This document shows, piece after piece, positions 3,491 through 59,854 of a stretch of DNA of 64,000 nucleotides. How positions within the stretch are numbered: the stretch's first letter is position 1; the number at the start of each line of letters is the position of its first letter. Source of the DNA: Octopus vulgaris (lineage: Eukaryota); the NCBI GenBank assembly GCA_951406725.2, contig OX597837.1, positions 6,076,001-6,140,000 of the forward strand, in the 5' to 3' direction. Below the pieces are notes generated by a model. That model made no database searches. It saw nothing but the letters and a program-made list of their open reading frames with translations, and had not been told where the DNA came from. Made by a program: the position numbers and the translations under genes.

Positions 3491-3726
3491 TATATTTCTT
3501 TATTGCCCACAAGGGGCTAAACATAGAGGGGACAAACAAGGACAGACATAGGTATAAAGTCGATTATATCGACCCCAGGGCGTAACTGGTACATATTTAA
3601 TCGACCCCGAAAGTATGAAAGGCAAAGTCGACCTCGGCGGAATTTGAACTCAGAACGTAGCGGCAGACAAAATACCGTTAAGCATTTCGCCCGGTGTGCT
3701 AACGTTTCTGCCAGCTAGCCGCCTTT
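3491..3726 (-). mobile_element. tRNA-derived SINE, family B, full length
   Basis: A-box/B-box head (ggcggctagctggcagaaacgttag...gagttcaaattcc), tail ...cccttgtgggcaataaagaaata; flanking direct repeat taaaatcttt(t/a)tctgtg. Confidence 0.85.
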
Positions 3727-10254: not shown

Positions 10255-10870
<616 letters not shown>

Positions 10871-20279: not shown

Positions 20280-20850
20280 TATAGGTATGGCCATGTGGTT
20301 AAGCTTGCTTGCCAATCACCTGGTTTCAAGTTCAATCTCACTTAGTGGTATCTCGGACAAAGGTCTTTTTTATCGCCCTGGACCAACCAAAGCCTTGTCG
20401 ATGCATTTGGTAGACAGAAACTGAGACGCTTAAGGCGGCGAGCTGGCAGAATCGTTAGCACACCGGATGAAATACTTAACGGTATTTTGTCTGCCGCTAC
20501 ATTCTGAGTTCAAATTCCACCGAGGTCGAATTTGCCATTCATCTTTTCGGGGTCAATAAATTAAGTACCAGTTACGCACTGGGGTCGATGTAATCGACTT
20601 AATCCGTTTGTCTGTCCTTGTTTGTCCCCTCTATGTTTAACCCCTTGTGGGTAGTAAAGAAATAAGAAATAAGAAACTGAAAGAAGCTTGCTTTTCATAG
20701 GCATGGCCATGTCGTTAAGTTTGCTTGCCAATCACATGGCTTCAAGTTCAATCTCACTTAGTGGTACCTCGGACAAAGGTCTTTTTTATCGCCCTGGACC
20801 AACCATGGCCTTGTTGGTGCATTTGGTAAACGGAAACTTAAAGAAGCTTG
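20280..20850 (+). mobile_element. Duplicated family A heads with a full family B SINE (20431-20670) between them
   Basis: 20280-20425 resembles 20697-20850; B copy from aggcggcgagctggcagaatcg to gtaaagaaataagaaata. Confidence 0.8.
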
Positions 20851-24359: not shown

Positions 24360-24850
24360 ATCATCGTTTAATGTCTGCTTTCCATGCTGGCATGGGTTGG
24401 ATGGTCTGACTGAGGACTGGTGAGCCAGAAGGCTGTACCAGGCTCCAATCTGATCTGGTAAAGATTCTACAGCTGCATGCCCTTCCTAATGCCAACCACT
24501 CTGAGAGTGTATTGGGTGCTTTTATGTGCCACTGGCATGAGGGCCAGTCAGGTGGTACTGGCAACAACCACGCTCAAAAGGTGTTTTCTACGTGCTACCT
24601 GCACAGGAGCCAGTCCGGTGGTACTGGCAACGACCACGCTCAAATGTTGTTTTTTCACATGCCACTGGCACATATGCCAGTTAGGTGATGCTAGCAACGA
24701 TCAAGCTTGAATGGTGCTTTTCATGTGCCACCGGCATGGGAGCCAATCAGCAGCCCTGGTAACGATCACACTTGGATGGTGCTTTTAACGTTCCACTGGC
24801 ACGAGTGCCAATCAGGCGGAACTGTCATCGGTCACGTCAGCGATTTTGAT
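24360..24850 (-). mobile_element. Family D retroposon with internal ~60-bp tandem expansion
   Basis: Repeated gtgccac(c/t)ggca...gcca.tc.gg.gg.actggcaacgaccacgct units. Confidence 0.75.
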
Positions 24851-30924: not shown

Positions 30925-31942
30925 TTGGGGCGGCTTTAAGGGTGTCACGTAAGGCCAGACTGGAGGCCTAACCTTCCGAGGGATCTTTTCGGTTTGAACG
31001 GCAGTTTTTAAAAATAATTTCCACGTAACTAAACACTTTTAAACTTCGTATACTGGTAGAATGTATTTATCATACATCTTTTTCTCTTGGCTTTATTGAG
31101 AAAATAAAGTTTGTAAGATATTAGTTGTTTTTTTTTTCTTCAGTTTCTGTAATTTCAACCAATCAATTTCTGTAATTTCAACCAATCGTTTATTGAGGTG
31201 AAAACATTCTGTGCCGTATGAATATGTCCCTCGTTTAAGAAACAGATTGGGTTTATTTACATTTGTGAAGAAAAAAAGATACCTCCCCCATCCCCCACCC
31301 CTAACCCTAAAACAGATTGAAATGCAATAGATTGATACTAGGGTCATAATTATGGGTGACAATTTCATATAACACCGCTAGAAAAAACTGCCGTTCAAAC
31401 CGAAAAGACCCCTTCCGACTTCTTTTACGAAGGGGTGTTGAATAGTTCTTGGCTTTACGGGTGTCATAAATGGGCTCAACCTTCCGAGTGCTTTTATGAG
31501 GGGGTGCCAAAAAGTTTCTGGTTTTAAGGGTGTCGGGAAAAGCCTGGCTGGAGATCCCAAACCTAGTTCTTTTGCGAAGGGGTGCTGTATAATTCTTTGC
31601 TTTAAGGGTGTCATAAATACCCTCATTACAGGCCCAACCTTCCGAGTGCTTTTATGAGGGTGTGCCAAAAAGTTTCTGCTTTTAAGGTTGTCACGAAAGG
31701 ACTGTCTGCAGATCCCAAACTTCCGAGTTCTATTACGAAGGGGTGCTGAATAGTTCTTGACTTTAAGGGTGTCAAAAATGGCCTCGTTATAGGTCCAACC
31801 TTCCGAGTGCTTTTACGAGGGGGTGCCCAAAAATTTCTGGCTTTAAGGGAAAAGCCTGTCTGGACGCCCAACCTTCCGAGTTCTTTTACGAAGGGGTGCT
31901 GAAGACTTTAAGGATGTCATAAATGGCCTCGTTACAAGCCCA

Positions 31943-32145: not shown

Positions 32146-33460
32146 TACACAGGGCCTTTTAAATAAATTGATATCAATTTGAAGCAGTTGACTTAGTGGG
32201 TTTAGCATTTCCTTTTTTGATAAAACCTTGCTTGAAATCTAATCGTCCTCTTTAGTTTTCAAGTAAATAGCGAACTGATTCAACGGAACAGCAGAATCGT
32301 TCTGCCATTGTTGTTTTGGTGCGCGCAGGACACACTGCCAATAAAATCGTTAAGTTTCTCGTGTGTATTAACCATTTAAAGAAATGGGAAAGATTGATGG
32401 GAAAAGACACATGACTCGAAGTGATTCCAAGCGCAACCCAAAGTTTCTCGCCGGCCTCAAACCCTCGATTGAAGCCAACCCATCGACATCCAGGACAACT
32501 TTTGCAAAGAAAAGCAATGTGTCCCTTTCCACGGTGTCCAGAGCTGTGAACAGGGTCCTTGGTACGACTAGCTAGTCAACTCCTAACAACCAAGGCGAAA
32601 GCAATCAGAGCGCAGCGATACCCAAAGCTTCTGTCATTCATCAAACATCAGAATGCAGGAAAAACTCCCATGTTTGTGGCTGAGCCAAAGCTAACTGTGG
32701 ACTCTGAGGTGAATCGTAGAAATTCTTAAGTGATAGCATATAATCCTTCTGACGTTCCCATTCTGTTTGAGACTAAGAACCCTTATTTCTTTACTGCCCA
32801 CAAGGGGCTACACACAGAGGGGACAAACAAGGACAAACAAACGAATAAAGTCGATTATATCGACCCCAGTGCGTAACTGGTGCTTATTTAATGGACCCCA
32901 AAAGGATGAAAGGCAAAGTCGACCTCGGCGGAATTTGAACTCAGAACGTAGCGGCAGTCGAAATACCGCTAAGCATTTTGCCCGGCGTGCTAACGTTTCT
33001 GCCAGCTCACTGCCTTAGTTTGAGACTAAGAATCCTGCCTCTGTGATGGTATTTGGTGCCGTGGCGAGTGATGGAAGTGTCATGGGACCACATTTCATTG
33101 AGTCTGGCTCGAAGATCGTCACAAAGGAGTATCTGGACAAACTGAAGCACTCTCTGTTAGCTTGGAGGGAGCAGAAGTTTGGGCTTGACAATGTGGTCCT
33201 AATTCAGGACTGAGCACCAGGCCACGGGTCAAAAGCAACGTAGGGTTTCCTTGGGGAGAAGGTGCCATTTTTTTTTGTGTGGGCCAACACCTGGCCCGGT
33301 AAAAGCGCAGATCTCAACCCTCTCGATGACGTTTTATGGGGGCGTATTTGAAACAAGGTCCAATGCTTCACCACACTCGAGTGCCAACAGTTTGGAGACC
33401 TGCATCGTGCATGCGACACGCAAAATCACGAAGGCGGAGATTACAACAGCTGCAAAACAC
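32146..33460 (+). pseudogene. Decayed Tc1/mariner transposon, maT (DD37D)-like transposase
   Basis: RSAIVVLVRAGH, RSDSKR, VSLSTVSRAV, NPASVMVFGAVASDG, IQD*APGH and WPGKSADLNPLD (38-residue D-D spacing including a poly-T run); in-frame stops. Confidence 0.85.
32784..33017 (-). mobile_element. Full family B SINE inserted in the transposase
   Basis: TSD gtttgagactaagaa(c/t)cct at 32765-32783 and 33018-33036. Confidence 0.9.
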
Positions 33461-44454: not shown

Positions 44455-44670
44455 GGCAGTGCGCAGGCAGAATGGTTAGCACGCCCCGGGCTAAATGCTT
44501 AGCGGGATTCATTTCGCCCGTCGCTACGTTCTGATTTCAAATTGCGCCGAGGTCGACTTTGCCTTTCATCCTTACGAGATCGATAAATTAAATAACAGTG
44601 AAACACTGGGGTCGATCTAATCGATCCACTCCTTCCCCAAAATGGTTGCCCTTGTGGCAAAATTTGAAAC
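44167..44670 (+). mobile_element. Family B head fragment, (ATT)n and a full B-related SINE
   Basis: Head ends at ...gggcgaaatgctta; ~240 bp of (ATT)n; second copy at 44452-44670. Confidence 0.7.
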
Positions 44671-55849: not shown

Positions 55850-56412
55850 CGGTGCTCTGTCGGTAACAATGACAAGCATTCCAGAGAATTCGATCAACGT
55901 AACAGCTGTTCGTGAAATTAACGTACGGGTGGCTGAGCCCTCCACAGACACGTGTACCCTTAACGTAGTTCTCAGGGAAATTCAGCGTGCTACAGAATAT
56001 GACAAGACTGGCTCTTTTAATTACAGGCCATGGGCCTATATTAGAGAGAATTTATTTACCCAACTTATCAGCGCTGACTTGGGGGTTAAATGACTGTTTC
56101 TTCTTCGCTTATGACGACAAAAGTGCCAGTTGATCCGATCACAGTAACCGCTGTTAGGTGAAATTAACTTGCAAGTGACTGAGCACTCCACGGCCATATG
56201 TACCCCCAGGGAGAATCGGGGTGACACAATGGGATAAAATTGGCCCTTTCAATTGCAGGTACAACTCCTTTTTGCCAGCTGATTATAACGTAGCAACATG
56301 AAAAGAAATATTTTGCTCAAAAAAAAACCCCCACAACGCAGCACCGTGAATCGAACTGACGACCTTACGATCGCGAATCGTGTGCCCTAATCACTTAGCC
56401 AACGCGCCTTCA
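55850..56412 (-). mobile_element. Two family E SINE units
   Basis: Homologous to 35975-36300; tRNA head at 56340-56412. Confidence 0.7.
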
Positions 56413-56427
56413 CTTATGAATTAAATA

Positions 56428-58678
56428 TATTTCTTTACTGCCCACAAGGGGCTAAGCATAGAGGGGACAAACAAGGACAGACAAATGGATTAAGTCGATT
56501 ATATCGACCCCAGTGCGAAACTGGTATTTATTTATCGACCTCGAAAGAATGAAAGGCAAAGTCGACCTTGGCGGAATTTGAACTCACAACGTAACGACAG
56601 ACGAAATACCTATTTCGTTATTACCCACAAGGGGCTAAACATAGAGGGGACAAACAAGGACAGACATAGGTATTAAGTCGATTAAACGCCCCCAGTGCGT
56701 AACTGGTACTTAATTAATCGACCCTGAAAGGATGAAAGGCAAAGTCGACCTCGGCGGAATTTGAACTCACAACGTAACGACAGACGAAATACCTATTTCT
56801 TTACTACCCACAAGGGGCTAAACATAGAGAGGACAAACAAGGACAGACATAGGTATTAAGTCGATTAAACGCCCCCAGTGCGTAACTGGTACTTAATTAA
56901 TCGACCCTGAAAGGATGAAAGGCAAAGTCGACCTCGGCGGAATTTGAACTCACAACGTAACGACAGACGAAATACCTATTTCTTTACTACCCACAAGGGG
57001 CTAAACATAGAGGGGACAAACAAGGACAGACATAGGTATTAAGTCGATTAAACGCCCCCAGTGCGTAACTGGTACTTAATTAATCGACCCTGAAAGGATG
57101 AAAGGCAAAGTCGACCTCGGCGGAATTTGAACTCAGAACGTAACGACAGACGAAATACCTATTTCGTTATTACCCACAAGGGGCTAAACAGAGAGGGGAC
57201 AAACAAGGACAGACATAGGTATTAAGTCGATTATATCGACCCCAGTGCGTAACTGGTACTTATTCAATCGACCTCAAAAGGATAAAAGGCAAAGACGACC
57301 TCGGCGGAATTTGAACTCAGAACGTAACGACAGACGAAATACCTATTTCGTTATTACCCATAAGGGGCTAAACATAGAGGGGACAAACAAGGACAGACAT
57401 GGGTATTAAGTCGATTAAATCGCCCTCAGTGCGTTACTGGTACTTAATTAATCGACCCTGAAAGGATGAAAGGCAAAGTCGACCTCGGCGGAATTTGAAC
57501 TCAGAACGTAGCGGCAGACGAAATACCTATTTCTTTACTACCCACAAGGGGCTAAACATAGAGGGGACAAACAAAGACAGACAAACGGATTAAATCGATT
57601 ACATCGACCCCAGTGCGAAACTGGTACTTTGTTTATCGACCTCGAAAGGATGAAAGGCAAAATCGACCTCGGCGGAATTTGAACTCAGAACGTAACGACA
57701 GACGAAATACCTATTTCGTTATTACCCATAAGGGGCTAAACATAGAGGGGACAAACAAGGACAGACATGGGTATTAAGTCGATTAAATCGCCCTCAGTGC
57801 GTTACTGGTACTTAATTAATCGACCCTGAAAGGATGAAAGGCAAAGTCGACCTCGGCGGAATTTGAACTCAGAACGTAGCGGCAGACGAAATACCTATTT
57901 CTTTACTACCCACAAGGGGCTAAACATAGAGGGGACAAACAAAGACAGACAAACGGATTAAATCGATTACATCGACCCCAGTGCGAAACTGGTACTTTGT
58001 TTATCGACCTCGAAAGGATGAAAGGCAAAATCGACCTCGGCGGAATTTGAACTCAGAACGTAACGACAGACGAAATACCTATTTCGTTATTACCCATAAG
58101 GGGCTAAACATAGAGGGGACAAACAAGGACAGACATGGGTATTAAGTCGATTAAATCGCCCTCAGTGCGTTACTGGTACTTAATTAATCGACCCTGAAAG
58201 GATGAAAGGCAAAGTCGACCTCGGCGGAATTTGAACTCAGAACGTAGCGGCAGACGAAATACCTATTTCTTTACTACCCACAAGGGGCTAAACATAGAGG
58301 GGACAAACAAAGACAGACAAACGGATTAAATCGATTACATCGACCCCAGTGCGAAACTGGTACTTTGTTTATCGACCTCGAAAGGATGAAAGGCAAAATC
58401 GACCTCGGCGGAATTTGAACTCAGAACGTAACGACAGACGAAATACCTATTTCGTTATTACCCACAAGGGGCTAAACATAGAGGGGACAAACAAAGACCG
58501 ACATAGGTATTAAGTCGATTAAATCGCCCCCAGTGCGTGACTGGTACTTAATTAATCGACTCTGAAAGGATGAAAGGCAAAATCGACCTCGGCGGAATTT
58601 GAACTCAGAACGTAACGACAGACGAAATACCGCTTAGCATTTCGCCCGGCGTGCTCAACGTTTCTGCCAGCTCGCCAC
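56428..58678 (-). repeat. 12-unit head-to-tail array (~184 bp) of the family B SINE within a single TSD
   Basis: 12 ccca(c/t)aagggg anchors; only the rightmost unit has the 5' head; cttatgaattaaata at 56413-56427 and 58679-58693. Confidence 0.93.
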
Positions 58679-59854
58679 CTTATGAATTAAATAACAACTA
58701 CAACAACAATTATGGTCCCTGTGCTAAATAATCTTCAAATCAATATTTACCCAGTTTTCTTAATCCGTTGGGTACACAGACGTATTTTCATAAATCAATT
58801 AGTGGAAAGAAAAGTATTTTCTTACCTATTTTTCTTCTTATTTTAATTAATCACCCATCTTATTACATTTGTAAGTGATGGGGGTAGTTGATACAGTTGC
58901 CTTTTTTTTAGCTTTTTTTAAAATTTTATTATTTAGTTTGTGGATTTCTCGCTATTTCTGAAATATTTATTCAAGTTAAAAGAGGTTGCGACAATTTTAT
59001 CTTAAAAACAAAAATTTGTTTACATTTTAACTCTTTACAAACAGAATTTTAAGGATAAAAGGAGAAAAAAAAAGCCTACAAAAATGGCGTTTGCGAGTTT
59101 GTGCATATGTATATTTTATAAATGCGTGTGTGTGTATGTGTATTTATTAATGTGTGTTGTGATTTTGAAATTCGTTATATGCTTGTGCATATTAATAACA
59201 ATTAGGTTTAATATTATTAAATTGCTAACATAAACGTGAAATCAAGGATTTTTAGAAAAAAAAACAAAAAACAAACACAAAAGTGGGAAATTGAAAAACC
59301 TCCAATCAAAGTTGGTAAACAAAAGTTCAGTCATGCAAATATTAAAATTTCTATTTTCCTCATTTAAATAATTCCAAATTTGCTGTTGCTGCTGCTACTG
59401 CTGCTGCTGCTGCTGTTGTTGTTTTCACGGCCGCCGCTGTCGTTATCGTTACCATCATCATCATCATCATCATCTTCATCATAATCATCCTCACCATCAT
59501 CATCATCATCATCATCATCATCCTCATCATCGTCGTCGTCATCGTCGTCATCATCATCATCATCATCACCATCGTTCAAAAGTTTGTTAAATGCTAATTT
59601 AGTTAGAAGGAATGTTATTCTGAAATTTGCCGACAAAATTCCAAAATACGACGGTGTTTTTCTGCATGTCGACTCCATGTCCTTAAATTCTATCCTTCAG
59701 AGAGTTTGGTAGCATTTTGGGTGTTCTGTCGAGTGTATGATGGGAGATAGACGTCAATCAGACCCCTCCTCACCAAAACAAAATCACGACGTAGATGAAG
59801 GATAAGATAAAAATCAAATGTGACATTAAATTTCCGTACCCCTAGTAAATATAC

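Follow-up and report, generated by a model that had tools for sequence, protein, structure and literature searches.

The tandem array at positions 56413-58693 of the window, by which we mean the whole 64,000-nucleotide stretch of Octopus vulgaris DNA that was analysed, belongs, with tens of thousands of other fixed-junction multimers, to a small tRNA-derived mobile element. The array is a real feature as assembled; its architecture is partly known and its mechanism is likely new. Our best explanation, to which we give somewhat better than an even chance, is that the SINE inserts into the GGTAT of older copies of itself by target-primed reverse transcription, its 5' end being joined by annealing, and that local duplication follows. 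The route that leads from a SINE to a tandem array or a satellite, and the choice between insertion and multimeric templates, are left open in the available parts of three reports (PMC8466645, PMC10702118, PMC11481361). The octopus family is a countable case, in which the intermediates are still in the genome and two tail lineages are tied to two target sites, and thus the question becomes directly testable.

Architecture of the Array

Positions q1 to q232 are numbered along the first monomer, which lies on the minus strand (q1 = 58679, q49 = 58631, q232 = 58448). TRF delimits a tandem array at 56428-58631 with a period of 184, 12.0 copies and a score of 3631. The parts of the locus are the following, in the order of the minus strand:

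58679..58693, minus strand: 5' copy of the target-site duplication (TSD), 14-15 bp, identical to 56413-56427
58632..58679, minus strand: tRNA-like head (q1-48), single occurrence, with the A-box-like TGGCAGAAACG at 58659-58669
58621..58646, minus strand: head hairpin (q34-59), whose 3' arm starts at q49 (58631), the likely insertion target going by the target preference and the nested insertions
58448..58631, minus strand: body of unit 1 (q49-232), lineage X; two rare sites make it a mosaic with unit 2
57344..58447, minus strand: units 2-7, a 368-bp AB dimer present three times without change, A and B being 22 sites apart
57160..57343, minus strand: unit 8, a mosaic of both lineages by unit comparison
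56611..57159, minus strand: units 9-11, 183 bp each, lineage X, 2-3 differences apart
56428..56610, minus strand: unit 12, terminal body, lineage Y, with rare variants common to units 2/4/6
56413..56427, minus strand: 3' copy of the TSD, identical to 58679-58693

An earlier note, made from the letters of the window, had placed the whole array in a single TSD, with the head kept by the 5'-most of 12 units and the other 11 restarting at one base. These points stand: the 15-bp repeats at 56413-56427 and 58679-58693 are identical, the 48-bp head is confined to the 5' unit (58448-58679), and every later unit restarts at the GGTAT of q49 (58631), which is likely the insertion target. The TSD can be counted as 14 or 15 bp, because the last sense base of the repeat overlaps q1. 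The 12 units all open with GGTATTTCGTCTG (eight of them are 184 bp long and four 183 bp) and all end with the full GAAATA tail, as monomers do. The body of unit 1 contains the B-box-like GAGTTCAAATTCC, a central domain common to a sister family and the tail ending in GAAATA, and TGGCAGAAACG in its head is an element that we take to be an A box from its likeness to the consensus.

The description of the junction given in that note has to be corrected in several respects. The junction is a perfect mini-hairpin, as had been described, in 6 of the 11 cases, which read AACGAAATA joined to GG, but the other 5 read AAGAAATA joined to GG; the variant that makes the perfect form, 226C, is present in about 1% of pooled units. 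The head hairpin (q34-61) folds at -13.2 kcal/mol. Its loop is CTAAGC in the array and not CTTAGC, and the break does not lie inside the loop but at the first base of the 3' arm, directly after a 4-nt loop.

Nor are the units equivalent copies. Units 2, 4 and 6 are identical to one another, as are units 3, 5 and 7, and the two types are 22 sites apart, the resulting (AB)x3 block having 0 differences over 1,104 bp. Among units 9-11 there are 2-3 differences; unit 12 is 12-24 sites away from the others and has the rare 118A, 130A and 142T in common with units 2/4/6. The array is therefore made of two lineages (X and Y), mosaics of them and a recent (AB)x3 local duplication; for units 2-7, an assembly effect is also possible. 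Judging by its sequence, unit 12 is likely the original host copy. A different tRNA-like element with a T run is found at 56339-56408 on the minus strand, 4 bases past the 3' TSD of the array (Rfam tRNA 18.6 bits, below threshold).

The SINE Family in the Genome

The junction is not unique to this locus: its 21-mer has 35,219 exact matches in the genome (2.8 Gb) and a 20-mer of the head has 30,770, with 0 for the reversed control of each. Multimers at unrelated loci have the same junction within a single TSD, as the earlier note had anticipated, the TSD enclosing the whole multimer in 32 of 60 scorable cases; a TSD was also found for 18 of 36 monomers of the array's family (B), and the median length is 14-17 bp. 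Because the junction recurs at unrelated loci in single TSDs, its source is the retrotransposition machinery, not a single local duplication event. An unselected sample of 664 kb contains 33 elements with the B tail, and 13 of them, the window array being counted, carry the q49 junction. The junction is also present, as a loose end, in contigs of four out of four independent public runs with three organism labels, contigs that were swamped by dispersed copies and placed on the flank and unit 1 only (58440-59000), with the unique flank partly uncovered. Run lengths come from the fetched loci only, mostly motif-selected, and comprise 85 dimers, 38 trimers, 13 tetramers, 4 pentamers and one run each of 6, 7 and 12 units (143 runs). 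Most of the loci considered below were likewise picked by exact motifs, and the units within an array are not independent.

The 232-bp monomer is short, non-coding, interspersed and present in very many copies, as is characteristic of a tRNA-derived SINE, and the TSDs of the family are those of target-primed reverse transcription. The A-box-like TGGCAGAAACG lies at q11, and GAGTTCAAATTCC resembles a B box by eye, the strict B-box pattern being unmatched. No tRNA was called on the array by ARAGORN or Rfam, all the Rfam matches being sub-threshold. A partner LINE was not found among the fetched loci, where 5 tail-only matches have no upstream sequence in common.

A sister family (A) has q1-167 in common with B and a different tail, and the terminal unit of a multimer often belongs to this family or to a third tail type. 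Additional tail types with the same head and central domain were observed (L046, L070, L100 and a block on C24), and these, too, can be the last unit behind a q49 junction. In the window, monomeric copies of B and of the sister family are located at 3493-3723, 10255-10573, 20434-20664, 32784-33008 and 44463-44624, that at 32784-33008 having a clear 15-bp TSD. The window also contains 66-bp and 161-bp tandem repeats at 24543-24750 and 31473-31903, and sequence resembling the 66-bp family lies downstream of B tails at three other loci (L011, L033, L035). Elsewhere, one copy has inserted antisense into a second one at GGTAC, with a TSD of 16-17 bp (L053:1464-1690), and an inverted pair of copies bears the junction (L024:1224-1744).

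Relations Among Units and Link Between Tail Subtype and Junction

The two units of a B-B dimer differ by 0.110, compared with 0.116 between loci (26 dimers), and 0 dimers fall under 0.04. Together with terminal units that often belong to the older sister family, this result gives no support to the reverse transcription around a 184-nt circular RNA that had been proposed in the earlier note. In runs ending in an A unit, divergence is higher in that unit than in the B unit that opens the run (0.075 vs. 0.042; 57 vs. 8 of 69 runs; p = 4e-10). The terminal A units are star-like, with 0 close pairs out of 987, suggesting that they were independent hosts; a few composite masters were ruled out as the source of the B-A dimers on the same count. 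No significant excess in the age of the terminal unit is found for B-B runs (0.050 vs. 0.041, p = 0.11). The non-terminal units of runs of three or more are often near-identical (62 pairs, mean 0.054), and the staggered variants in common within longer arrays fit stepwise local duplication equally.

The tail of A is joined to q49 in 4 matches genome-wide, against 35,219 for the tail of B. A processed 5' end should accept any tail, and thus the jumping onto identically 5'-processed RNAs that had been offered as an alternative to the circle finds no support, although end-to-end template jumps do seem to occur in this family. A second fixed junction connects the tail to q15 (AAAGAAATA joined to AGAAWCG) and has 4,111 matches (loci L191-L220 and L241-L260). 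The tail subtype predicts the junction: T220/G222 tails join q49 and C220/A222 tails join q15, their ratio being 162:5 before q49 (n = 221 units) and 2:36 before q15 (n = 53). Since the q15 junction goes with a different tail subtype, the site appears to be picked by the upstream tail and not by the hairpin. Of 18 first q15 junctions that could be scored, 16 have the same base at position 19 on either side (p = 0.002), as a TSD predicts. A microhomology between GAAAT of the tail and CGAAAT of the head was rejected as the source of the junction, because it would retain the GCTTAGC loop, which is absent from the junction.

GGTAT Targets and Nested Insertions

Solo copies in unrelated DNA are often found at a genomic GGTAT, which is the sequence of q49-53. 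Among the solo ends chosen by a downstream GGTAT followed by A, C or G (30 examined of 4,993), 14 have a TSD that is anchored without those 5 bases, and its upstream copy is also GGTAT in 11 of the 14 (10 of 13 after dropping one duplicate locus) and one base off in 2 more. One of the GGTAT solo targets that were read was itself a SINE. GGT follows directly after 23 of 77 terminal ends, and the solo ends that start with GGTA are linked to T220/G222 tails (14:1 vs. 27:26).

If a copy inserted at q49 were joined directly, the expected order would be host q1-63, AA, a full copy and a restart at q49. The combination of q49-61, 0-8 nt and a full head has 92 matches genome-wide, about 74 loci after merging, and in 21 of the 27 distinct loci that were read the full copy gives way to a restart at q49/50. 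These nested forms amount to about 0.3% of junctions and have a duplication of 14-17 bp that begins at q49; at some loci (L262, L283, L286 and L289) private variants occur in both copies of the TSD.

Control positions for nested insertion yielded 4 (q69-81), 5 (q15-27) and 38 (q103-115) matches. The q103-115 class is made of a head (q1-115) ending in CCTTT, AA and a full copy, and neither a restart at q102-103 nor a duplication was seen at the joint in the 20 loci read. This class looks like the product of end-to-end template jumps, and therefore the enzyme is likely able to switch templates and a few of the nested forms may be jumps too. However, a q49 restart after a full-length insert is found in 3 of 12 cases in this control class vs. 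21 of 27 in the nested class, and for this reason we have kept the TSD reading for the latter.

Two kinds of tandem repeat were observed beside these forms. The loci of the q103-115 class (C3:20297205, C11:81438144 and others; L328-L345) look as if the reverse transcriptase had jumped onto prematurely terminated Pol III RNAs, and some of them have grown into tandem repeats of 117-121 bp. Head-only tandem repeats of 64-67 bp, with at least 16 copies in L290, are present at C5:87874184-87875487 (L289, L290), at C10:17996023-17996498 and in L266 and L278, and the doubled head left by nested insertion is apparently their origin.

A Model of Self-Targeted Insertion and Its Alternatives

In the mechanism that we favour, a short 3' extension of the RNA (GGUAU.. 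or AGAAA.., depending on the tail subtype), read from the next unit, would pair with the nicked target. The links of the tail with the junction, and of T220/G222 with GGTA solo ends, suggest this pairing, and a consequence would be that arrays give rise to RNAs which go on to build further arrays. The available text of PMC8466645 describes TATTT as a terminator for Pol III in the Dip and Ves SINEs. Such a terminator could end the RNAs at GGUAUUU, provided that the copy of the motif in the head is read through. Target-primed reverse transcription would then take place into a resident older copy at q49, and annealing of the cDNA to the homologous host overhang would add one 184-bp unit inside the old TSD, giving the common form. 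Two pathways, annealing and direct, are known for the 5' joining of LINEs (PMC4245944, in its section 14). In about 99% of events, annealing, or the later collapse of a doubled head, would have produced mosaic heads. At the window locus, in the simplest case, a lineage-Y copy (unit 12, with the TSD) would have received a lineage-X unit at q49, and slippage or unequal exchange would have expanded these two founders to 12 units, among them units 9-11, the mosaic units 1 and 8 and the (AB)x3 block.

The heads of B-A runs bear on this model in both directions. T19, which is the A-type base, is commoner in them than in B elements (20/42 vs. 15/69, p = 0.006), but its excess over B-B runs, at p = 0.001 in the first sample, was reduced to p = 0.054 when the sample was enlarged. 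Against the model, these heads are B-like, with a divergence of 0.055 at q9-30, compared with 0.048-0.055 in B and 0.113 in A monomers; G at q44 occurs in 10/45 of them vs. 16/77 in B; and head and terminal unit are not correlated in divergence (rho -0.24, p = 0.11). Nor is there a link between T19 and the 62T/64T type of the terminal unit (16/20 vs. 17/22), an early linkage (12/16 vs. 3/9) having vanished in the larger sample. TSD mismatch in B-A runs (20/301) lies between those of B monomers (15/286) and A monomers (13/118) and so does not demonstrate older insertions. The B-like figures would fit mosaic heads, arisen by collapse of a doubled head or by replacement from the cDNA, but they would fit co-insertion equally. 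Overwriting of the first bases of the target by the RNA was seen in just isolated one-base cases, which were discounted as evidence.

Such co-insertion would result from homology-guided template switching, in which, within one event, reverse transcription begins on any family RNA and the end of the cDNA (at about q49-60) anneals to the GGUAU.. extension of a B RNA, so that all founder units and the head enter a new site together. The priming chemistry is the same, with the nascent cDNA as primer, and we regard this as unlikely, though it is the main rival. It agrees with the mostly B-like B-A heads, with TSD mismatches that are not clearly old, with the unrelated units of dimers and with the existence of end-to-end jumps (20 loci of the q103-115 class read), L334 being a jump onto the end GAAATA-GGTATT. 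However, it leaves unexplained the nested duplications of 14-17 bp from q49, the T19 excess and the q19 concordance at q15 junctions, and it demands that every A template be a different old and diverged copy. We give a smaller chance to read-through Pol III transcripts of existing multimers that are retrotransposed whole, as happens with dimeric SINEs; most arrays would then be copies of multimeric source loci, and the junction would have few independent origins. The single head and single TSD would follow naturally, the heads are B-like, and the divergences of first and terminal units are correlated in B-B runs (rho 0.57; in dimers alone 0.26, not significant); yet the terminal A units do not group into clades, and tail types other than A and B are found among terminal units. 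Copying of whole arrays by read-through is probably a contributor, but hetero-dimers must come mainly from elsewhere.

The retrozyme-like origin considered in the earlier note, by loop cleavage and ligation into a 184-nt circle, or by identically processed RNAs, is very improbable. In its favour, the breakpoint borders the hairpin loop, the tail GAAAUA is predicted to pair with q51-56 in a circular fold and to close a stem over the junction, near-identical non-terminal units are common in longer runs, and RtcB ligation before retrotransposition is reported for U6/L1 (PMC6789731). A headless circle cannot supply the head, however, and units of dimers are unrelated, terminal units come from other families, the tail subtype sets q49 or q15, and GGTAT is a genomic target of solo copies. 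No hammerhead is visible, in agreement with the earlier note, no ribozyme family being matched in Rfam at E<=10 and CTGANGA occurring 0 times on either strand. A caution follows for other families, namely that fixed-junction multimers in one TSD are on their own no evidence of circular RNA. Least probable of all, in our judgement, is a purely local DNA duplication of a monomer with unequal crossing-over, or an assembly artefact. The (AB)x3 block and the staggered rare variants in common within the window array and other runs of three or more favour local duplication, which does account for growth past two units. As the origin of the junction it is refuted by the same base-exact junction at tens of thousands of places; moreover, the units of dimers are not duplicates and the junction is present in contigs of all four public runs.

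Beyond the insertion step, self-targeting might have a wider consequence, which we advance tentatively and with rather less than even confidence. A heritable 3' guide (GGUAU.. or AGAAA.. by tail lineage) would direct the reverse transcriptase of a partner LINE to two fixed positions within the promoter region of the SINE itself and of its sister families, and 5' ends joined by homology would make clean in-register additions, in a feed-forward loop behind tens of thousands of junctions that would seed SINE-derived satellites. By inserting into copies of itself, a non-coding element would have a safe harbour, one set by the pairing of RNA and target. Site-specific LINEs follow a comparable strategy.

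Comparison With Known Systems

The family presumably resembles the octopus tRNA-derived SINEs OR1 and OR2, which are sisters with a common head and central domain and different tails. These SINEs were reportedly described by Ohshima and Okada in 1994. OR1 is listed as a CORE-SINE in the part of PMC4824008 available. An account of self-targeted in-register growth of a SINE, of tail-linked target sites or of octopus multimers was not found in the accessible literature, and subscription papers or supplements may hold one.

The closest architecture is that of the TSD-(SINE)n-TSD arrays of the blood clam Scapharca broughtonii, formed by a mollusc tRNA SINE with up to 15 units per TSD (PMC11481361, available text). 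As in the octopus, there is one pair of TSDs, a complete head on the first unit only and a uniform truncation of the head in the rest, and some arrays mix families. In contrast, the non-terminal units of the blood clam are truncated in the tail, whereas the octopus units all have the full tail, and arrays plus palindromes make up about 3% of copies there, compared with the 13 of 33 unselected elements that have the junction here. The authors of that work suggest unequal recombination; here a target preference and nested intermediates are seen.

The SINE-derived satellites of squamates are also tandem repeats of a partial SINE, with an extended terminal unit, higher-order dimers and homogenised longer arrays. 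According to the available text (PMC10702118), they are enriched in subtelomeres and are ascribed to duplication and unequal recombination, and no insertion-site mechanism is given there for the first junction. In rodents, head-to-tail multimers of Dip, B1 and B2 account for up to half of the copies and reach eight units, and the portion of PMC8466645 available leaves open whether they come from insertion of SINE into SINE or from dimeric templates. The rodent units are full-length and joined by the tail, whereas in the octopus the joint falls at one constant base within the promoter and later units lack the head.

Finally, non-LTR retrozymes have, like the octopus family, short units in dispersed tandem arrays. 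They are described in the available part of the preprint (bioRxiv 10.64898/2026.07.22.740005) as having hammerheads, presumed rolling-circle copying and Penelope-like partners, none of which was found in the octopus SINE: its units each have no hammerhead and are not copies of one circle (26 dimers). Unlike the retrozymes, the octopus element has a tRNA-like head and TSDs of 14-17 bp.
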